Assembly: GCA_965247115.1 (NCBI GenBank)
Contig: CBDFGR010000003.1
Span: 2,176,001-2,240,000, forward strand
Source of the DNA: Myxococcota bacterium
Lineage (GTDB): Bacteria > Myxococcota_A > UBA9160 > SZUA-336
Direction: 5' to 3'
Length of the DNA stretch: 64,000 bases
The notes under the pieces were generated by a model. That model did not search any database, was not told the DNA's origin, and saw only the letters and a program-made list of their open reading frames with translations. A program made the translations under genes and the position numbers. How positions within the stretch are numbered: position 1 is the first letter of the stretch; the number at the start of each line of letters is the position of its first letter. Shown here piece after piece: positions 1 to 46,753 of this stretch.

Positions 1-1060
1 GGCGCAGCAGGTGATCGCACAGAACGAGACACACCATGGCCTCGACCATGGGCACCGCGCGAGGGAGTACGCACGGATCGTGGCGGCCCTGGGCCTCCAG
101 GACGACAGACTCCAGGTCCCGGTTCACGGTCTCCTGCTGCTTTCGGATGGTGGCAGTGGGCTTGAATGCGGCGCGTACGACGATCGGCTCGCCGTTCGAG
201 ATCCCGCCCTGCACGCCGCCCGAGCGGTTGGAACGAGTGCGCACCTGACCCGCTTCGGCGTAGAACGGGTCGTTGTGTTCGCTCCCTTTCAACAGCGTGC
301 CCGCAAAGCCAGATCCGATCTCGAAACCCTTGCAAGCAGGAAGCGAGAGCAGCGCCCGTGCGAGCTCAGCCTCGAGCTTGTCGAACACCGGCTCACCCAG
401 ACCGGGTGGGACAAGGTGCGCCACGCAGGTCACGACGCCACCGAGGGAGTCCCCCTCGTTGCGCGCGAGATCGATGCGATCGATGATGGTCTGGGCCGCT
501 TCGGGATCCGGGCAGCGCGTTGGACCGGCCTCCACCTGCGCGCGTGTCACCCGAAGCGGATCGGACTTGCACTCGATGGTGTGCACGCGACTCACGAACC
601 CGGTGATCTCTCCGAGGCCCGCGAGCGCCAGCACCTTGCGCGCGATCGCTCCCGCGGCAACACGCCCGATGGTCTCGCGCGCACTTGCGCGCCCCCCTCC
701 CTGCCAGTTGCGGACCCCGTACTTCGCCTCGTAGGTGTAGTCCGCGTGCGAGGGTCGATAAACGTCGCGCAGCTCCTCGTACGCTTCGGGCCGCGCGTCC
801 CTGTTGTCGACGGCGATCAGAATGGGCGTTCCGAGAGTCTCTCCCTCGAACACCCCAGACAGAATCCGCGCCCGGTCCTCCTCCTGCCGCGGTGAAGTCA
901 GCCGACTCTGCCCAGGCCGCCTCCGATCCAGCTCAACCTGAATCTCCTCGACCCCGAGCGAAATCCCCGGCGGACACCCATCGACCACCACCCCGACCCC
1001 GCCCCCGTGCGACTCCCCCCAGGTATGCACCCGAAACAACCGCCCAAAAGAAGACCCCAT
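1..1060 (-). CDS. aroC: Chorismate synthase (3' end outside window)
   Basis: Manual translation from ATG at 1060: [32 protein letters not shown]...RRRPGQS, the chorismate synthase N-terminal signature. Missing from the ORF track because it runs off the left edge. Confidence 0.95.
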
Positions 1061-1075
1061 CCCCAAATTCTAGCG

Positions 1076-2065
1076 CCGAACTTAGGGACGGTCCTTAATC
1101 CGAACTTTTCGGATCACGACCACTCCGAGCACCAGCGCCTCGTCGCACATGGCGGCTGACGGCCGAATCTGAGACGCCGAGCGCCTCGGCGATGAAGATC
1201 TTGGACAGCCCCAGTTCGACTGCTGCGCGATAGGCGATCTCTGTGCGGGCTCTTGAAGTCGCGCGATCTCTGCGACCCTGGATCAGGCCCACCGGATCGA
1301 TGCCATGAGTACGGCAGACCTCGTGGATTAGATGTTGGACTCGACTCGGCGGAGTCTCTCCGCTGGAGTCTGACGCCGGGTCGACGCCCGCCTGCATGAA
1401 GCGATTCAGCACGCTCCGCGCTCTGGTCAGGTCGCTGGCGAAGAGAGCGAGCGCCTTGGTCGAATGATGGAACTGTTGCGGGCGAATCGCCCATGAGTGC
1501 CGCGTGTCCGGACCAAGGATAGCGTCTGAGAGACGCCAAGGAGTCTACGATCCCGGCGGTCACCGGATTCAGATGGACGTAGCGGATCAGATTCAGGAGG
1601 TCGTTATCATCACGGACGAGTCGCGACTTGAACCTGTTCTGGACTAGATGCCCCACACGCCCGTGGCGCTGGTTGAAATACATCGCGTAGCCAGTGCCAA
1701 CTCGGGCCATCACGCGGCCGACTGGGACCTCCCCTGTCCGAACGACGAGATGGTAGTGATTCGACATCAACACCCAGGCGTAGCACGAGCAACCAGACTC
1801 GGGGAGGACATCCGAGAGACGTCTCAGGAGGTCTCGGGCGTCCCGATCGTCTTTGAAGATGTCGCGGCGATCGACTCCGCGAACCATCACATGATGAACG
1901 GCGCCAGGAGCATCCAGACGAGGGCCACGCGGCAAGAGATGACCTCAAGCTTCGGGACCCTGTTGAGGGAGTCGATAACATGCTTTCGGCAAACTCTCCA
2001 GTTGTCGGCGATCGAAAAAGTTCGGATTAAGGACCGTCCCCAAGTTCGGGACCGTCCCCCAGTTC
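1076..2065. mobile_element. RAYT (REP-associated tyrosine transposase) locus bounded by 34-bp inverted repeats
   Basis: Left IR CCGAACTTAGGGACGGTCCTTAATCCGAACTTTT (1076-1109) and right IR AAAAGTTCGGATTAAGGACCGTCCCCAAGTTCGG (2016-2049) differ at one position. An extra partial copy lies at 2049-2065. The IRs enclose an HUH transposase gene. Confidence 0.85.
1095..1935 (-). pseudogene. RAYT / Y1 HUH transposase with C-terminal HTH, frameshifted near 1476
   Basis: Motifs HHVMVRG, NHYHL (HUH), GHLVQNRFKS, RYVHLNP (catalytic Tyr) and YPWSG. The C-terminal HTH-like part (IAEALGVSDSAVSR) is in another frame (1095-1412); 841 nt = 280 codons + 1. Confidence 0.8.
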
Positions 2066-3109
2066 TAGGTGGAGGACCTTTTTGGTGAGGGTGGAGAGGG
2101 GGAGGGTGTTTGCGGTTTTGCTTGTGCACCAGCGGGCTTCTTTCGCAAGGCCGGGGCGGAGGCGGCTTGGGAGGAGGCAGAGGGTGAAGAGGTTCAGGGT
2201 GAAGGCGCGGTGGGAAAGGGCGTGATGGATCGTGCCCACCGGTTCACCCGGTTGCGTCTTCAGGCCTGTGCGGTCTTGTAGGCCCTCGATGAGGGCGTTC
2301 ACACTTGTGCCTTCCGCGGTCGGGACTTCCCAGAGACCGCCCAGGATGCCTTTGCTGGGGCGGCGGAGCATGAGGAGTTTGTTCGCCCGTTTGACGATGC
2401 CGCAGGTGAGCGTGACCTCGCGCGGGGGGCTCTTCTCTTTTCGTGCTGGGTAGCGATTCGGGTCTCCGGAAGAGGCGGCGCGGCAGGACCGTCGCAAGGG
2501 GCAGGCCAGGCAGTTGGGGTTGCGCGGTTTGCAGACGGTGGCGCCGAGCTCCATGAGCGCCTGGTTGAAGCGTCCGGGTGTCTGGTCCGGGACGAGCTCC
2601 TCGGCTTTGGTCCAGGTGTCTGCGTCGGAGAGTGCGGGCTCCGCAACCAGGCGTGCGATCACTCGTCTGACGTTTGCGTCGACAATGGCGGCAGGCTCGT
2701 CGAACGCAATGCTGCGGATGGCTCCGCTCGTGTAGCGGCCGATGCCGGGCAGGTTGCGCAGTGCAGCGGCATCGCGCGGCACGGCGCCGTCGTGCTCCCG
2801 CAGCATCAGTTCTGCGGCGCGCTTCAGGTGACGCGCTCGTGCGTAGTACCCGAGGCCGGCCCACTCACGCAGGACGTCTTGCTCGTCCGCGACCGCGAGC
2901 GAGCGCAGCGTGGGGAAGCGCTCGATGAAGCGGTCGTAGTAGGGAATCACGGTCTCGACCCGGGTTTGCTGCAGCATCGACTCCGAGAGCCAGATGCGGT
3001 ACGGGTCTTTGGTCCTGCGCCAGGGCAAGTCCCGCTCGGCGCCGCGATACCAGTCGAGCAGGTGTCGCCGGATGGTGTCGCGTCTGTCGCGGGTGAAGCG
3101 GGGGATCAC
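2027..3109 (-). CDS. mutY: A/G-specific adenine glycosylase
   Basis: LPWR, SESMLQQT, GLGYY, LPGIGRYT and the C-x6-C-x2-C-x5-C FeS motif. GTG start overlaps the upstream stop; the stop lies inside the RAYT right IR. Confidence 0.93.
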   Translation of the reverse strand: MIPRFTRDRRDTIRRHLLDWYRGAERDLPWRRTKDPYRIWLSESMLQQTRVETVIPYYDRFIERFPTLRSLAVADEQDVLREWAGLGYYARARHLKRAAELMLREHDGAVPRDAAALRNLPGIGRYTSGAIRSIAFDEPAAIVDANVRRVIARLVAEPALSDADTWTKAEELVPDQTPGRFNQALMELGATVCKPRNPNCLACPLRRSCRAASSGDPNRYPARKEKSPPREVTLTCGIVKRANKLLMLRRPSKGILGGLWEVPTAEGTSVNALIEGLQDRTGLKTQPGEPVGTIHHALSHRAFTLNLFTLCLLPSRLRPGLAKEARWCTSKTANTLPLSTLTKKVLHLELGDGPELGDGP

Positions 3110-17497: not shown

Positions 17498-19042
17498 GTG
17501 AGCGCACGGATCGTCTATGGCGGAGCCGCAGCTCTTCTCGTCTGCGCGTTGCTGGGTGTGCGCTCCGCGGGCCAGAGCAGCTACGCCATATGGATCGAAG
17601 ACTCGCTGCCGCTGCTAATCCACGAGCCCGATGCGGCGACGTCGCGCGACGGAGAGCGCCTGCCAGTGGTCGTGCTCTCGCACGGATCCCTCGGCAACAG
17701 CAGCTTGTTGAACTCGTTGGCGCGGCGCCTGAGTGCTCAGGGATTCGCGGTGATCACCTTCGACTCTCGCGGTCAAGGGCGTAGCCGGCGCCCTTTCGAG
17801 CGAAGTGTGGGCTTTGTGCCCGAAGGCCTGATCGAGGACTTCGACCAGGCCGTGCTCTGGGCGCGTTCGCAGGCGCGCTACGATGGTCAGCGCCTCGCCG
17901 TAGGAGGCCACGGAACGGGCGCGGCCGGCGCGCTCGCCTACGCGGCGCGGCGCGATCCCGGAGTGGCCGCCGTCGTTGCCATCTCCGGTAGCGCTTCTCT
18001 GGACGGGCCCTACACGCCACCGAACGTGCTGTTACTCTGGGGGGAGCGTGCCCCGTCAGCTCTGCGCGCGCTCTCACGGCAGCGCGGGGCCGAGCTGATC
18101 TCTGCGAACCGGGCCGTGCTCGAGCGTACCTACGGCAGCTTCGAGCGGGGTACGGCCGTGCGCCTGGCCGAGGTGGAGGGAGCGAACCATCTCTCCGTTC
18201 TTTACGCTCAGGGCGCCGCCTCCGAGATCTCGAGCTGGTTGGCCGGCGCGCTGACACCCACGCCCGACCTCGGGCCTGTCCCCCGGGACGCGTCGCTTCT
18301 CTGGGCGCTTGTCGGGATGTTGGGCGCGCTCGCTCTGCTCTTGGGAATGCCGCAGGCCGTCGCACCGCTCGCGCCGCGCGTCGCACTTCCCGCGGTGACA
18401 CATCCCTGGCAGCGGCTCGGGCTCGTAGCCGCTGCTCTGGCCGCCAGTACGGTGCTGCTCGTCGGCGCCGACCAGGTTGCGGGCAGCGCGCCTCTCGCCG
18501 TCTTCCCGCTCTCCGGCGCTCGTGACGTGCTGGGCTTCTTCGCCATCGCGGGAGTCGGTCTGCTCGCCTACGCCGCCAGGGATACGCGCGTGCGCGCCGA
18601 AGGGCTTCGAGACTGGCGCACCTGGACCAGCGCTGGACTCATTCTGGGTTTCATCTATGTCAGCATCGGGGTGCTGAGCCAGCCGTTCTGGGATCCGTTG
18701 CTGAGCTCCCGAAGGCTATTGCCCTGGGCCGCTGCCACGCTGCTGTTGCTGCCCTGGTTCGGCGTCACCGAGTGGCTGCTCCGCGGCCCCCTGCTCGCTC
18801 AGGCCTGGCTCCCCGCTGCGGCCCGCCTCCTGACCCTGGCCGCCCTCGCGTCCGCAGCGTTCTTCGGCCTGGTCCCCCGCGCACTTCTCGCCGCCCTCGT
18901 CCCGCTCGTTCTCCTCTTCGCCATCTTCGAGGCCCTGGCCTTCCGCCTCTCCCGTCAGCTCCCGAACCCCTGGCTCTCCGCCCTCGTCCAATCCGCCTGG
19001 TTCGCCTGGCTCCTAGCTGCATTCTTCCCCATCGAGGGCTAG
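17498..19042 (+). CDS. Alpha/beta hydrolase-fold protein with C-terminal multi-TM domain
   Basis: VVLSHG, FDSRGQG, GHGTG (no Ser at the nucleophile elbow), hydrophobic C-terminal half. Confidence 0.7.
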   Translation: MSARIVYGGAAALLVCALLGVRSAGQSSYAIWIEDSLPLLIHEPDAATSRDGERLPVVVLSHGSLGNSSLLNSLARRLSAQGFAVITFDSRGQGRSRRPFERSVGFVPEGLIEDFDQAVLWARSQARYDGQRLAVGGHGTGAAGALAYAARRDPGVAAVVAISGSASLDGPYTPPNVLLLWGERAPSALRALSRQRGAELISANRAVLERTYGSFERGTAVRLAEVEGANHLSVLYAQGAASEISSWLAGALTPTPDLGPVPRDASLLWALVGMLGALALLLGMPQAVAPLAPRVALPAVTHPWQRLGLVAAALAASTVLLVGADQVAGSAPLAVFPLSGARDVLGFFAIAGVGLLAYAARDTRVRAEGLRDWRTWTSAGLILGFIYVSIGVLSQPFWDPLLSSRRLLPWAAATLLLLPWFGVTEWLLRGPLLAQAWLPAAARLLTLAALASAAFFGLVPRALLAALVPLVLLFAIFEALAFRLSRQLPNPWLSALVQSAWFAWLLAAFFPIEG

Positions 19043-19063
19043 GAACGCGTAGGGGCCCCCAGT

Positions 19064-19220
19064 CCGAACTTAGGGACGGTCCTTAATCCGAACTTATTCC
19101 GCGCGAGACGACCGCAGCGACGCCTGGATGAACGAGTGTGCCCACGAGCCCCGCCAGAGTGACCAGAAGTTCCGACTTTCGGCCAAACAAGTTCGGATTG
19201 AGGACCGTCCCCAAGTTCGG
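19064..19220 (+). mobile_element. Non-autonomous REPIN/MITE-like element (family A)
   Basis: Same terminal IRs as the RAYT locus around a ~90-bp core homologous to 45751-45905 (inverted). Confidence 0.85.
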
Positions 19221-19226
19221 ATGGAT

Positions 19227-19297
19227 GCGGCGCGCGCAGCGAAGGGCGAAGCCCTGAGCGGAGGTGGGTGGCCGCGGGCGCCCTCGGCCGGGTCCCA
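19227..19297 (+). repeat. Multi-hairpin repeat, family B (partial copy)
   Basis: GCGGCGCGCGCAGCGAAGGGCGAAGCCCTGAGCGGAGGTGGGTGG...GGGTCCCA matches the copies at 31407, 31594 and 45613. Confidence 0.85.
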
Positions 19298-19306
19298 TGG
19301 GGTGCG

Positions 19307-19741
19307 CTACAAGACCTGACCGTGAGAGAACTCGCAGGTGTTGCCGCTGGGGTCGCGAACCATGGCGAAGTAGCCCACGATGGGTCCCGCATCGGTGGGG
19401 CCGTACTTGAGGCGACCCTCGCTTCGCGCGAGTGCGGCGATCTCGTCAACCTCTTCTCTCGAGCTCACGTCGAAGCCGAAGTGGTCCGTCGCGTTGGGCT
19501 CTGGCAGCGACTCGTGTGGCATCTCGAGCACGACGATCACGAAGTCGGGATCATCGCTCCGGTGGGCGAGCCAGGCTACATGGATGCCGTCGTCCTCGCG
19601 CTCGTGCACGATACGCAGTGCTGCGTAGCGTTGGTAGAAGTCGAGCGACTCCTGCATGCGGGTCGTTCGAATCGCAATATGGGTCATCCGCGCCGGCCGC
19701 TTCAGCGCGACGGACCGTGCTGCCTGCTTGCCCTCACTCAC
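19307..19741 (-). CDS. VOC/glyoxalase family protein
   Basis: THIAI, DHFGF and RDPSGNTCEF motifs. Confidence 0.85.
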   Translation of the reverse strand: MSEGKQAARSVALKRPARMTHIAIRTTRMQESLDFYQRYAALRIVHEREDDGIHVAWLAHRSDDPDFVIVVLEMPHESLPEPNATDHFGFDVSSREEVDEIAALARSEGRLKYGPTDAGPIVGYFAMVRDPSGNTCEFSHGQVL

Positions 19742-30417: not shown

Positions 30418-31374
30418 TCACGCGCCCCGGAAAGAGATCCGGGCGCCACTCTTCTCCAGATCGCGCAGGATCCGGGCCGGGGGGAGCCCTTCGCGCGGGG
30501 TCAGGAGACCCGCGGGAAGCTCGCGCGCGAGGATCGCCTCGACGAGCGAGCCTGCCACGGCGCATGCCGCAGCCGGCGCGTCGCTGCAGCTGACGTCGAT
30601 CCTGGCCTCGGGCTCATGCTGGCTCGCGTCCATCCTGGCCTCGGCACTGACGATGAAGGGCCCCCGGCTCCTGGCTTTCGTAATGGGCTCGAGGAGACGG
30701 CCGGGGAGCCAGGGGTACGGCTCCAGGTAGAGAAGACGCTCCACGCAGTGCGCCCCCGCGAAGCCCGCAAGGTCGAGGCTCTCGGAGCCCCCTAGCCACT
30801 GCGATCCCAGCGGTGCGGGGAAGCGAAAACGAACGGGCAAGCCGCGCGTCGTCCTTGCTCGCGCCTCGTCTGCGTCGCCACGTGCGGTCTCCGTCTGTTG
30901 CCAAGGGCCGGTCGACGCGATGCGCAGCTCGCGAATGAAGCGAAAGCGACGCACCAGGCTCTCAGCAAGCACGCCGGGCAAACCGGGCACAGCCCCCGCC
31001 TGGAGCACCACGGGCACCTGCGCTTTCCACGCGGTCTCGCCGAGCACGTCAAGCGATCGCTCGTCGAGCCGCAACGCGCTCAGACCGACGAAGGGCACTC
31101 GCGTGGAGAGTGCCGCGGAGATCGCCGACGTGAGCTCGCCTCCGCAACAGGCGACGACCGCGTCTGCCCCCTCGAGGACTCGGCGCAGCGGGCGCATGTC
31201 TCTGGCGTCGCAGTACGCGCCGCGGACGCGATCCCCGAAGCCCACCGCCACAGCATCCGCACGCTGAACGCTTCGCCCGGCGACGACAACGTGCGCGCCT
31301 GTTCGCTGCACGAGCTCGCGCACACAGCACCGACCCAGATGTCCGTACCCCCCGAGCACGACCACCTCTGGCAT
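30418..31374 (-). CDS. Saccharopine dehydrogenase-like NAD(P)-binding protein
   Basis: VLGGYGHLG, VAGR and AGAVPGL motifs. Confidence 0.7.
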   Translation of the reverse strand: MPEVVVLGGYGHLGRCCVRELVQRTGAHVVVAGRSVQRADAVAVGFGDRVRGAYCDARDMRPLRRVLEGADAVVACCGGELTSAISAALSTRVPFVGLSALRLDERSLDVLGETAWKAQVPVVLQAGAVPGLPGVLAESLVRRFRFIRELRIASTGPWQQTETARGDADEARARTTRGLPVRFRFPAPLGSQWLGGSESLDLAGFAGAHCVERLLYLEPYPWLPGRLLEPITKARSRGPFIVSAEARMDASQHEPEARIDVSCSDAPAAACAVAGSLVEAILARELPAGLLTPREGLPPARILRDLEKSGARISFRGA

Positions 31375-31406
31375 ACCGAGAGAGTCTAGCGGGTCTTGCG
31401 GGCCTG

Positions 31407-31732
31407 GTCTTGTGGGACCCGGCGCGCGAGCGGTCGCGCGCCACCCACCTCCGCTCAGGGCTACGCCCTTCGCTGCGCGCCGCGTTCGCGGCGCTTGCAT
31501 AGGTGCCAAGCCCCGTAGGATGGAACCTGAACTTGGAGGACCGTCCCTAGGTTCTAACGGAATAAGTTCAGATTAAGGAGTCCCTAAGTTCAGATTCCGT
31601 GGAGAACCGGCTACCTTCTGCGGGGCTTGGCAACCGTGCAAGCGCCGCGAACGCGGCGCGCGCAGCGAAGGCCGTAGGCCTGAGCGGAGGTGGGTGGGCC
31701 GCGGACGCCCGCGGCCCGGGTCCCACAAGACT
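31407..31732. repeat. Mosaic repeat: inverted pair of family-B elements around a degenerate family-A remnant
   Basis: B on minus (31407-31520), A-like segment (31526-31595: GGACCGTCCC and CGGAATAAGTTCAGATTAAGGAGTCCCTAAGTTCAG), B on plus (31594-31732). Confidence 0.85.
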
Positions 31733-32525
31733 AAGGAGCGGGCTCGGAGGTGATGGCGTAGCCGGCGTCGGCGCGGATGGTGAGCTGGCGTTTGCCATCG
31801 AGGTCCTTGATGACGGGGAGGACGGGGACGACAGGGCGTTTGCGCGAGGCGGTGAGGGCGGCCTCGGAGCTCTCGAAGCCTGCGAGCGTGTCCAGGTTGC
31901 GGGCCGTGGGAAAGATGAGTCGGAGCTCTCCGCGTTTGGAACGCTCGAGCGCATCTTCCGGGCGGGTCCAGACGTGGTTCGTGGACTCGATCCCATCGTG
32001 GAGTGCCAGCTGGCCCCGAGGTGTGAGTGTCGAGAAGAAGATCGTGTCGAAGCGGCGCGGCACGTCCTCTGGGGTGATCCAGTGTGCGTGGGCTGCGAGC
32101 AGGTCGGCGGCGAGGTCGAGGCCTTCTTTCTCGATCAGCTCACGAAAGGGAGTTTTTCCGCTTTGGACCTCGAGCCGGTGCTGCGCCAGTGCCGTTGCGC
32201 CGGCCGCGTCGATCAGCCCGGCGGAACCGCGCCTGCGGGCGAGCAGGATCCCGGACTCCTCGAACGTCTCGCGGATCGCGGCCACGAAGAAGCCAAGCGC
32301 CAGCTTCTCGTCGATCGTCGGCAGCGCGGCGCTGGCCTGCTCCGCGCTGAGCCCGCTTACGTGCTCGGCGATCTCGTGATCCTGATCTTCCACGCGTCCG
32401 CCGGGAAAGACGTACATGTCGGGGAGGAACTGGCTCCTGGAATGGCGCTCGAGCATCAGCACCTCGGGCGACACAGGTCCGTCGCGGAACAGGATCACGG
32501 TGGCAGCTGGGACGGGCCTTGGCAT
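31731..32525 (-). CDS. NUDIX hydrolase (acyl-CoA diphosphatase NUDT19-like)
   Basis: YVFPGG, AAIRETFEESG, WITP and RRFDT motifs. Confidence 0.85.
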   Translation of the reverse strand: MPRPVPAATVILFRDGPVSPEVLMLERHSRSQFLPDMYVFPGGRVEDQDHEIAEHVSGLSAEQASAALPTIDEKLALGFFVAAIRETFEESGILLARRRGSAGLIDAAGATALAQHRLEVQSGKTPFRELIEKEGLDLAADLLAAHAHWITPEDVPRRFDTIFFSTLTPRGQLALHDGIESTNHVWTRPEDALERSKRGELRLIFPTARNLDTLAGFESSEAALTASRKRPVVPVLPVIKDLDGKRQLTIRADAGYAITSEPAP

Positions 32526-44440: not shown

Positions 44441-45613
44441 TTGGCGTTTGAAGCGCTTGACTTCTTTCGAATCGACGACGATCTCGCCGACGAGGAACGG
44501 ATCGTGCGCGACACGGTCCGCGACTTCGTAGAGCGCGAGTTCCTGCCAAGGGTCGTCGAGCACGTCCGGCAGGACGGCTCCTTTCCGATGGAGCTCGTCC
44601 CACAGATGGCCAGCCTTGGGCTCTTCGGCGCCAACCTGGAAGGCTACGGCTGCGCCGGGATGAACGCCGTTGCGTACGGGCTCGTCATGCAGGAGCTCGA
44701 GCGGGGCGACTCCGGGCTGCGCAGCTTCTCGTCGGTTCAGGGCGGGCTCTGCATGTACCCGATCTACGCGTACGGAACCGAGAAGCAGAAGGACCGCTGG
44801 CTGCCCCCGATGGCGCGGGGCGAGGTGATCGGCTGCTTCGGGCTGACCGAGCCGGACTACGGCTCGGACCCCGGCGGGATGCTCTCGCGGGCCGAACGCC
44901 GCGGCAACAGCTGGATCCTCAACGGGACCAAGCGCTGGATCACGAACGGGAGCGTTGCCGACCTCGCGATCGTCTGGGCGCAGACCGAGGACGGGATCCA
45001 GGGCTTCCTCGTGGAGAAGGAGTTCCCTGGTTTCGAAGCCAGGGACATGAAAGGCAAGTTCTCGCTGCGCGCGTCGATCACGAGCGAGCTCTTCCTGTCC
45101 GATGTCGAGGTTCCGGAAGAGAATCGGCTCAGCGGCGTCGTGGGTCTGCGCGGACCGCTCGGCTGTCTCAGCCAGGCGCGCTACGGCATCGCCTGGGGGG
45201 CGCTCGGTGCCGCCATGGCCTGCTTCGACGAGGCCCGTCGCTACTCGAAAGAGCGGATCGTGTTCGGGCGTCCACTCGCCTCGCTGCAAATCCCGCAACA
45301 GAAGCTCGCCTGGATGGCCACCGAGATCACCAAGGGACAGCTGCTCGCGCTGCGCCTCGGTCGCTTGAAGGACAGCGGTAAGCTGCATCACTCGATGGTG
45401 TCGATGGCCAAGATGAACAACGTGGACATCGCACTCCAGGTGGCGCGCGCGGCCCGCGACATGCTCGGTGCGAACGGGATCGTGGACGACTACTGCGCGA
45501 TGCGCCACATGGTGAACCTGGAGACCGTGCGCACCTACGAAGGCACGCACGACATCCACACGCTCATCCTGGGCCGCGAGCTCACCGGCCTCGGCGCCTT
45601 CGGAGACGAGTGA
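44441..45613 (+). CDS. gcdH: Glutaryl-CoA dehydrogenase-like acyl-CoA dehydrogenase
   Basis: ELERGDSG, GCFGLTEPDYGSDP and TYEGTHDIH motifs. Confidence 0.88.
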   Translation: MAFEALDFFRIDDDLADEERIVRDTVRDFVEREFLPRVVEHVRQDGSFPMELVPQMASLGLFGANLEGYGCAGMNAVAYGLVMQELERGDSGLRSFSSVQGGLCMYPIYAYGTEKQKDRWLPPMARGEVIGCFGLTEPDYGSDPGGMLSRAERRGNSWILNGTKRWITNGSVADLAIVWAQTEDGIQGFLVEKEFPGFEARDMKGKFSLRASITSELFLSDVEVPEENRLSGVVGLRGPLGCLSQARYGIAWGALGAAMACFDEARRYSKERIVFGRPLASLQIPQQKLAWMATEITKGQLLALRLGRLKDSGKLHHSMVSMAKMNNVDIALQVARAARDMLGANGIVDDYCAMRHMVNLETVRTYEGTHDIHTLILGRELTGLGAFGDE

Positions 45614-45750
45614 GTCTTGTGGGACCCGGGCCGCGGGCGTCCGCGGCCCACCCACCTCCGCTCAGGCCTACGGCCTTCGCTGCGCGCGCCGCGTTCGCGG
45701 CGCTTGCAGGTTGCCAAGCCCCGTAGGAGGTTGCCGGTTCTCCACGGAAT
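45613..45750 (-). repeat. Multi-hairpin repeat, family B
   Basis: Near-identical reverse complement of 31594-31732. Confidence 0.88.
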
Positions 45751-45905
45751 CCGAACTTGGGGACGGTCCTTAATCCGAACTTGTTCTGCCGAAGTCGGAC
45801 TTCTGGTCACTGAAGCGGGACTCTCGGGCACATTCATCCATCTAGGCGTTGCTGCGGTCGTCTCACGCGGAATAAGTTCGGATTAAGGACCGTCCCCAAG
45901 TTCGG
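45751..45905 (-). mobile_element. Non-autonomous REPIN/MITE-like element (family A)
   Basis: RAYT-type IRs at both ends; core homologous to 19064-19220. Confidence 0.85.
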
Positions 45906-45919
45906 CGGCAGTTGGAGGG

Positions 45920-46753
45920 CTAGTGCTCTAGGTGGGCTAGGGCGCGTTCGAGGCTGCCGTCGCAGGTGTCGAGGGCTGCGGTTGCCTCGGGCTCGGGTCG
46001 ACCGGAGAGCTCCATCAGGATGGCGATCGCTCGTTCCCGGAGCTTGCAGCTCGACGGGCGGATTCCCGTCATCAGGTTGCTGCGCACGAGACCGAGTCGG
46101 ACCATGACCGAGGTCGAGAGGGCGTGCAGGATCATCTTCTGGGCCAGGCCGCCCTTCATGCGCGTGGAGCCTGCGACGACTTCGGGGCCAACGTCCACGA
46201 CGATCGCGATGTCGACCAGGTTCGCGAGCGGCGAATCCGGGGCACAGGTGACACCGATCGATGTTGCGCCAAGCTCTTGCGCAAGCTCGACTCCGGCCAG
46301 GGCGTAGGGCGTGTGACCGCTCGCGGAAAGGGCCAGCAGCGCATCTTCTCTCGTGAAGAAGCGCGCACGGAGGTCGTGCGCCGCAGCCGTCGTGTCGTCC
46401 TCCGCGCTCTCGACCGCACGCAGCAGCGCTTCCTCCCCGCCCACGATGATTGCCTGCACCCGGCTCGGATCGAGGCCGTAGGTGGGCGGGATCTCGGCCG
46501 CGTCGAGTGCTCCGAGGCGACCGCTCGTGCCTGCCCCAATGTTGAACCAGCGCCCGCTGCCTTGAAGCACCTCGAGTAGCGCGTCGCTGGCCTCCTCCAG
46601 CTGCGGGAGGGCGTTGCGCACCGCGGCGGGCACGGTCGCGTCCTCGTCCAGGATCCGGGTGAGCAGCGAGCGCGGCGACATCCGGTCCAGGTCCAGGGTC
46701 CTGGGGTTCCTCGCCTCGGTCGGCCGCCGCGCGGGCGTCTTCGGAGCGGCCAC
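45920..46753 (-). CDS. murQ: N-acetylmuramic acid 6-phosphate etherase
   Basis: TEARNP, GAGTSGRLG and GPEVVAGSTRMK motifs. Confidence 0.92.
   Translation of the reverse strand: MAAPKTPARRPTEARNPRTLDLDRMSPRSLLTRILDEDATVPAAVRNALPQLEEASDALLEVLQGSGRWFNIGAGTSGRLGALDAAEIPPTYGLDPSRVQAIIVGGEEALLRAVESAEDDTTAAAHDLRARFFTREDALLALSASGHTPYALAGVELAQELGATSIGVTCAPDSPLANLVDIAIVVDVGPEVVAGSTRMKGGLAQKMILHALSTSVMVRLGLVRSNLMTGIRPSSCKLRERAIAILMELSGRPEPEATAALDTCDGSLERALAHLEH

Follow-up and report, generated by a model that had tools for sequence, protein, structure and literature searches.

Host genes beside a set of repeats in a Myxococcota genome carry a strand-polar shift in base composition, here called a halo, which is mirrored on the two sides of the repeats and decays with distance. 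The window analysed is a 64,000-nt stretch of this genome (G000; contig CBDFGR010000003.1 of assembly GCA_965247115.1). It contains, between aroC and mutY, an element in which a Y1/HuH transposase gene is enclosed by such repeats. The strand that has its 5' end at an element and runs outward is called the away strand, and its complement the toward strand. On the away strand, C and A are depleted in favour of G and T. We regard it as probable, if narrowly so, that the halos are mutation footprints, left when one strand is processed outward, in an error-prone manner, from nicks made by Y1/HuH transposases at the repeats. Targeted literature searches, with subscription journals and supplements outside their scope, found no published description of a strand-polar halo.

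Base composition beside the repeats

Genes were called within this analysis (5040 genes, 88% coding). The halo was measured as lnOR, the away-strand log odds of G versus C at four-fold degenerate third positions, relative to the same codon boxes of the genome. G000 contains 197 elements, which fall into three families (M, C, and D), and the M motif is seen in 99 copies at 65 loci. In genes reading toward the 5' edges of M, the first 50 bp show C 0.72, G 0.11, A 0.13, and T 0.04, while C 0.43, G 0.40, A 0.08, and T 0.09 are expected at the same sites. The composition is near background by 300–600 bp. Two-fold sites shift in the same direction, and genes reading away from the elements give the mirror image. 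Among edges with at least 12 sites, lnOR is positive at 182 of 214 toward edges (gene 3' ends) and at 75 of 109 away edges (5' ends). The signal at 5' ends is weakened because gene starts inside halos are under-called; aroC, for example, was called from 853, not 1060. The decay is exponential, with lengths of 148 ± 10 bp for M and 97 ± 17 bp for C 5' edges. Control gene ends, taken at distances above 3 kb from any element, are flat (lnOR 0.00–0.06).

The first-pass annotation of the window had proposed a skew that keeps its polarity whatever the gene orientation, fades with distance, and is missing at repeat-free gene ends. All three properties hold genome-wide, with the mirror image in all four gene arrangements. 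The term "C-depletion" is correct as far as C is concerned, but A is lost on the away strand too: the T:A log odds are 0.38–0.57, versus -0.01 to 0.17 in controls. Since C and A are lost together, this is an amino-to-keto shift. Amino-acid use near the elements stands at 1.25 for Pro, 1.22 for Thr, 1.20 for His, 0.88 for Gly and Trp, and 0.68 for Met.

The size of the halo differs among gene arrangements. At 0–100 bp, lnOR is 1.05 ± 0.09 at convergent, 0.86 at tandem 3', 0.68 at tandem 5', and 0.20 ± 0.16 at divergent ends. For M-bearing elements, the values are 0.84 (convergent 3'), 0.82 (tandem 3'), 0.63 (tandem 5'), and 0.54 (divergent 5'). The divergent halo is thus 0.54 ± 0.17 beside M-bearing elements (12 edges) versus 0.13 ± 0.10 beside elements without M (41 edges). 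Replication direction, leading or lagging, has no effect on the halo (0.66 versus 0.70).

In the window, observed and expected numbers of away-strand C at four-fold sites were compared at eight element flanks. Depletion is seen at P < 0.05 at six of them; one is borderline and one is flat. The halo at the 5' end of aroC (900–1060, minus strand) makes the coding strand, here the away strand, G/T-rich and C/A-poor at third positions. At 911–1057, 6 C are found versus 14.3 expected (P 0.002). As annotated earlier, GGG encodes eight of nine Gly in the first 33 codons (genome rate 0.234, P 6e-5). Compared with the sister genome G002, aroC shows 24 amino-to-keto and 5 keto-to-amino differences at 860–1060. 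The halo at the 3' end of mutY (2057–2300, minus strand) is the mirror image: the coding strand, here the toward strand, is C/A-rich and G-poor, with the codons previously quoted, and 4 away-strand C are found at 2057–2206 versus 14.3 expected (P 1e-4).

Three composite elements of unassigned strand are also flanked by host genes. The element at 19061–19297, an inverted M pair with a spacer and a partial C-family repeat, lies between halos at the 3' ends of an alpha/beta hydrolase gene (18890–19039, plus strand; C 3 versus 14.6, P 2e-5) and a glyoxalase-family gene (19310–19459, minus strand; 3 versus 9.7, P 0.004). At 31395–31736, two inverted C-family repeats enclose degenerate M motifs. Here the 3' end of a NUDIX gene has the strongest halo of the window (31734–31883, minus strand; 1 versus 13.9, P 5e-7), and the other flank (31222–31371) is borderline (12 versus 16.8, P 0.08). 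The element at 45610–45916, composed of a C-family repeat, a linker, and an inverted M pair, is followed by a halo at the 3' end of a SIS-domain gene (45923–46072, minus strand; 6 versus 12.0, P 0.02). Its other flank (45461–45610) shows no loss of C (10 versus 9.9). The recurrence proposed at 18780–19040, 31735–31870, and 45920–46010 is therefore seen, and the polarity claimed at 31290–31374 is weaker than was thought. Two flanks had been described as weak: the one at 19300–19400 is stronger than described, and at 45500–45610 the halo is absent.

Specificity and distribution of the halos

Repeat-adjacent 3' ends have an lnOR of 0.74 ± 0.03 (n = 224). The strongest hairpins from 3663 single-copy spacers have no halo, at either 53 3' ends (0.12 ± 0.06) or 26 convergent ends (-0.01 ± 0.08), which rules out a generic effect of hairpins or intrinsic terminators. 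The same polarity is seen at a second Y1 family, of which 16 units away from M, C, and D repeats show 1.04 ± 0.30 and 1.10 ± 0.20 in the first 150 bp. This family has open frames of ~230–330 aa, several of them beside IS481-like remnants (e.g., C3:117656-118750), and 16 copies in G000 versus 4 hits in G002. The proposed link of the halo to Y1/HuH elements is thus supported. Thirteen GGGG-type palindromes in G000 have 0.63 ± 0.16 at 3' ends and -0.48 ± 0.23 at 5' ends 150–300 bp away. These palindromes are perfect, 16–28 nt long, with two GGGG-type half sites (e.g., C3:2441951), and one is near an HNH-like gene. The flanks of IS5-like elements show 0.10 ± 0.06 over 39 ends (27 copies), which is no valid negative control because the copies are 99.9% alike and too young.

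Among element-free 3' ends, 105 of 4262 score above 3, versus 16 of 4126 with reversed polarity. Several of the top-scoring ends hold degenerate or related repeats or Y1 units. The genome contains 230 skewed segments, versus 35–40 expected by shuffling; an element is present at the origin end in 58 and at the far end in 3. Two long, strong segments without an element at the origin (C1:49117-50858 and C1:65439-66579) resemble each other at the ends of their upstream sequences, and are probably duplicated highly expressed genes.

G002 was aligned over 1.33 Mb at 87.6% identity; the sequence came from 1.6 Mb of a 5.8 Mb total, selected for the most part near the repeats of G002. The 197 G000 elements are divided into 92 shared with G002, 39 absent, and 66 unmapped, and 54 of 150 G002 elements are missing from G000. 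Within 150 bp, lnOR in G000 and G002 is 0.81 and 0.58 at shared sites, 0.65 and 0.39 at G000-only sites, 0.38 and 0.35 at G002-only sites, and 0.10 and 0.08 at control sites. The skew is also frame-free and is seen in an independent assembly. At sites occupied in G000, the skew of G000 is larger than that of G002 by +0.23 and +0.25; at sites empty in G000, the difference is +0.03 (-0.08 to +0.12). For this single lineage pair, the excess fits an activity that needs both an element and a transposase-rich lineage; NF047646/Y1 hits number 17 in G000 versus 4 in G002. At aroC–mutY, G002 has the repeat and the halo and no transposase gene, and no match to the transposase protein of the window was found in G002. 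Because of this, and because the gene in G000 is frameshifted, the halo does not need a local copy of the transposase gene.

The exact M motif is seen in 2 of 61 relatives, G000 counted, and a looser M core in 25 of 151 genomes. From six of the latter, other than G000 and with GGGGAC-type repeats, 40 stretches were taken, with 34 elements after duplicate removal. Within 150 bp of them, lnOR is 0.56 ± 0.13 for 15 toward genes and 0.24 ± 0.13 for 19 away genes. G004, which belongs to another genus and has C-like repeats, shows 0.60 ± 0.10 over 27 elements from 30 of 48 matches. G001 (14 elements), G043, G017, and G113 with G132 each have too few genes on their own. Inverted pairs of the GGGGACGGTCC core are also present in low-GC Clostridia and other Bacillota (L159, L172, L205, L206, L209, L240, and L265), indicating that the repeat type spans phyla. 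Matches in a broad 14-mer scan are mostly by chance.

The flanks of classical repetitive extragenic palindromes (REPs) are skewed in the opposite way. The values are -0.28 ± 0.07 in enterobacteria (63 genes, 64 elements; 73 of 80 full loci kept, seven non-enterobacterial records dropped) and -0.50 ± 0.07 in Pseudomonas (48 genes, 65 elements), both measured against distal codons, with no repeat-free gene-end control. In E. coli, the enrichment of C over G near REPs corresponds to Rho-utilisation (rut) sites, which are C-rich and lie downstream of the hairpins (PMC6061677). Like that skew, the halo is strand-specific, affects C against G, and lies a few hundred bases at most from an intergenic repeat. 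Unlike it, the halo has the opposite sign, is stronger (up to 1.7 log odds), includes an A/T skew, and is missing at single-copy hairpins. The excess of C over G expected on a transcript downstream of a hairpin is not found in G000, where the sign is opposite. The sign at enterobacterial and Pseudomonas repeats is the published rut sign; therefore, the known Rho geometry fails to explain the halo of G000. The opposite skew is also seen at enterobacterial and Pseudomonas tandem 3' ends (-0.24) and at Pseudomonas divergent 5' ends (-0.28 ± 0.10; L269-L348 and L392-L471, again against distal codons), which read-through termination alone would not predict.

Substitution spectrum and origin of the halos

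At shared sites, the net away-strand differences from G002 to G000, which are not outgroup-polarised, are C>G 255:156, C>T 139:88, T>G 104:74, and A>G 142:116; controls are symmetric. Four-fold divergence is not reduced near the elements (0.29–0.31 versus 0.26–0.29). Substitution models with background rates taken from distant sites were compared by their gain in log likelihood (lnL) at the shared sites. With four rates raised (to 2.5 for C>T, 2.1 for C>G, 1.8 for A>G, and 2.2 for T>G) the gain is 168.1, and with three it is 164. Reduced reverse rates gain 152, ~16 units less than four raised rates. The C-only model gains 149 (~19 units worse) and deamination only (C>T and A>G) 90, ~78 units worse than the model with direct C>G and T>G; both are rejected. 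Raising C>T and A>G alone cannot reach the composition of the halo. Deamination alone fits badly because C>G is needed, and C>G is favoured after a purine: the net counts are 139:51 after purine and 186:155 after pyrimidine (P 3e-5; control P 0.16). Such a context would be more typical of an enzyme than of selection on composition. The simple cytosine damage invoked in the first-pass annotation is accordingly not supported, while the rest of its proposal, a directional mutational bias from transposase nicking, agrees with the polarity, the orientation independence, the decay, and the Y1/HuH link.

In the reading that we favour, Y1/HuH transposases would repeatedly nick the repeats on either strand. 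An HuH nick leaves a 5'-phosphotyrosine and a 3'-OH able to prime synthesis (PMC8266576). Synthesis from this 3'-OH would run outward over a limited length, peeling off the strand bound at its 5' end. The newly made patch and the strand peeled off would alike be away strand, and the polarity of the halo corresponds to the strand that the HuH enzyme holds by its 5' end. Mutations could then originate either from errors of a low-fidelity polymerase in the patch of ~150 nt, or, if the displaced strand is rejoined, from damage to it during exposure, followed by translesion copying. The two routes are indistinguishable here, and the away-strand changes expected of either would be C>T, C>G, A>G, and T>G. 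Three of the four raised classes would be G misinsertion in the new strand, and C>T, A>G, and C>G would also be compatible with damage and translesion copying as at human break flanks (PMC7615360). G000 contains three Y-family polymerase-like genes. A 5'-GX>GG signature may be typical of Pol IV. The halos would accumulate over a long residence and fade slowly after the loss of an element, which would explain the weaker halos at empty orthologous sites.

Resection of a break exposes the strand whose 3' end lies there. The depleted strand here has its 5' end at the element, so this geometry is not shared. The depletion of C and A on a single strand, mirrored on both sides of a nuclease-targeted site, is shared with human meiotic breaks, whose flanks have the same one-strand C>N and A>N spectrum and where C>G, C>T, and A>G are attributed to translesion synthesis (Hinch 2023, PMC7615360). 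Those are eukaryotic double-strand breaks with 1–2 kb of resection, compared with ~150 bp here. In E. coli, mutagenic break repair (Pol IV; PMC5542668) also places mutations near a DNA break by error-prone polymerases; its clusters, however, span ~100 kb, are stress-induced, and consist mostly of indels, and no fixed strand-polar footprint is described in the available text.

Several facts weigh against a mutational origin at nicked repeats. Clean-empty orthologous sites retain halos (0.44 ± 0.10 in G000 and 0.28 ± 0.11 in G002, versus 0.08–0.10 in controls), so the halos largely predate the split or the sites have been reused; the expectation that repeat-free orthologs would differ in codon bias is thus half borne out, the halo being kept in a weaker form. 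The interval around +0.03 at sites empty in G000 just includes the +0.11 given by uniform scaling. The transposase gene of the window is frameshifted, with its catalytic part open and its tail out of frame. No transposase gene is tied to the C family, though C repeats carry halos, and the differences between repeat copies do not clearly favour either strand. The weak divergent halos, above all those without M, hint at a part played by transcription or residence time. A selection or conversion form of the model gains 168.5 lnL units with a nearly unskewed ancestor and a young halo, and 163–164 with an old halo, only 4–5 units worse, and the two-genome likelihood cannot separate mutation from selection. 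The observed divergence of 0.290 leans to mutation, though not decisively: with an old halo, 0.29–0.30 is predicted from raised rates and 0.26 from selection.

Selection might instead act on the RNA sequence beside hairpins as a termination or read-through signal, like that of E. coli REPs with reversed base preference. The decrease of the halo from convergent through tandem to divergent arrangements tracks transcription across the element. Repeat-free convergent ends shift slightly with the same sign (0.08–0.15 in most classes), Rho is present in G000, and the selection model fits the two-genome data. Even so, this explanation is unlikely, if not lightly set aside. The published rut sites downstream of REPs are C-rich (PMC6061677), the reverse of the halo, and our measure recovers the rut sign at enterobacterial and Pseudomonas repeats. 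A rut site on the toward strand would fall within codons under translation or in antisense; that strand is poor in T and shows no YC preference, and single-copy hairpins lack the halo. If selection were the true cause, the halo would be an undescribed RNA-level signal. Biased gene conversion, which we consider quite unlikely, would make the repeats hot spots of nick-initiated recombination, where, of the alleles brought in by the invading 3' strand, G/T would be rejected by mismatch repair at a higher rate than C/A (G:G and G:T repaired, C:C and A:C escaping). It predicts an amino/keto skew, strongest for G-to-C, with little rise in divergence, as observed. MutS is present in G000, and C:C is poorly repaired by MutS. 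The conversion model requires that short tracts recombine often at almost 200 sites, and the purine context of C>G is not obviously predicted. The specificity of NucS would fit it best, but NucS was not found in the 98% complete G000, and a NucS-type repair bias is rejected on this ground.

There is also a slim chance that the skew has another cause and predates the elements, which would insert or survive preferentially at such sites. The halos at clean-empty sites and the 105 high-scoring element-free ends fit this idea. It leaves the two-sided, centred, decaying pattern unexplained, and several of the top element-free ends hold degenerate or related repeats or Y1 units. The excess of G000 over G002 only at G000-occupied sites, and the preference of elements for the origin end of skewed segments, also count against it. 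An artefact of assembly or gene calling, or ordinary codon use at gene ends, can practically be dismissed: the under-calling of starts inside halos weakens the signal and does not create it, and the skew is frame-free, recurs in the independent assembly, and is missing at position-matched control ends.

It is quite possible, though short of probable, that enzymes of the TIRYT class, to which the transposase of the window may belong, are site-specific host mutators. Their repeats would be micro-origins of error-prone outward synthesis rewriting neighbouring codons and partly amino acids, and relic halos a fossil map of past insertion sites and of nick activity in vivo for a transposase family without a demonstrated mechanism. 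As regards the in vivo role of domesticated Y1 transposases and the spread of REP-like repeats, the halo would show, from sequence alone, which strand is processed and how far the processing extends. It also sets systems of this terminal-repeat type apart from classical REPs with their opposite skew. At several hundred gene ends, among them those of the core genes aroC and mutY, the halo locally distorts codon use, GC skew, and substitution models.

The element between aroC and mutY

aroC, encoding chorismate synthase (1–1060, minus strand; TIGR00033 450 bits, PF01264), is truncated by the window start and has its ATG at 1060. mutY, encoding A/G-specific adenine glycosylase (2027–3109, minus strand; TIGR01084 308.8 bits), has a start taken from our own gene model. 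The left terminal inverted repeat (TIR), of the M family with a GGGGACGGTCC-type core, is located at ~1075–1115 on the plus strand. The right TIR with a partial second copy is at 2010–2064 on the minus strand (full repeat 2010–2049). The repeats are 40 nt, inverted, and 93% complementary. The final codons and the stop of mutY come from the right TIR (2027–2064), and mutY of G002 appears likewise to read into the repeat, with a shorter tail. The putative TIRYT-type Y1/HuH transposase gene (1095–1935, minus strand) matches PF01797 (E 1e-7) and the helix-turn-helix (HTH) model HTH_23 (E 7e-4). Alignment to two intact relatives places a frameshift near 1450–1465, with the catalytic part (NHYH and YVHLNP) in one frame and the HTH tail in another.

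The gene had been annotated as a RAYT (REP-associated tyrosine transposase). It is indeed a Y1/HuH enzyme gene, but by its motifs TIRYT, or HuH subclass 2.1, fits better, and the gene is frameshifted. The motifs tabulated for subclass 2.1, NH[YF]H and Y[IV]HLNP (Quentin 2018, PMC6006769), are present as NHYH and YVHLNP. The C-terminal HTH expected of the subclass is found in the second frame, below the Pfam cut-off, and aligns with the tails of the two intact relatives. GGGG-type repeat pairs flank the transposase gene at five of seven related loci examined. The sequence GGGGACGG matches seven of eight positions of the TIR consensus GGGG[AT][CG]A[CG], which is found in most, not all, TIRs (PMC3733652; PMC6006769). 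As in TIRtrons (Di Nocera 2013, PMC3733652) and subclass 2.1 (PMC6006769), a Y1 gene with these motifs and a C-terminal HTH lies between GGGG-core TIRs, and the repeats are scattered as singles and inverted pairs. The core is one base from GGGGWSAS, and the frameshift is a further difference. The element type, a Y1 gene between terminal repeats, is already known; the available text of these two papers is silent on the base composition of the flanks.

REPtrons (E. coli TnpA-REP, group 2; Pseudomonas RAYT/REPIN, group 3; PMC8266576, PMC3116915) share the HuH/Y1 chemistry and the numerous intergenic palindromic copies close to stop codons. In contrast, the GTAG tetranucleotide at the foot of classical REP hairpins is not in the M consensus, the protein scores 76.2 bits against NF047646, under the cut-off of 80, and REP flanks are skewed the opposite way. 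A single M motif folds weakly (-7 kcal/mol). The mechanism by which REP-like repeats disseminate is described as unresolved (PMC8266576).

G000 is represented in many strain-level samples: 15 rows share half or more of the words, and the 20 rows that contain it stem from 10 studies. The slot between the terminal repeats (1101–2018) looks polymorphic among strains. Depth in run X10 is 0.13 in the bin 1335–2001, versus 39–46 in adjoining bins. Contigs of X3, X6, and X14 follow the window as far as 1101, beyond which they carry different sequence. In one X3 piece across 1082–1979 there is one gap, which might correspond to the frameshift. Among the 40 of 968 differences listed between strain contigs and the window, none is inside a halo. 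Strain pieces covering 1–1101 hold more differences (17–37), which is suggestive only.

Stop codons beside the elements are TAG in 100 cases, TGA in 65, and TAA in 50, versus 1594, 2360, and 313 elsewhere. The richness in TAG arises partly because the elements supply or target the stop.

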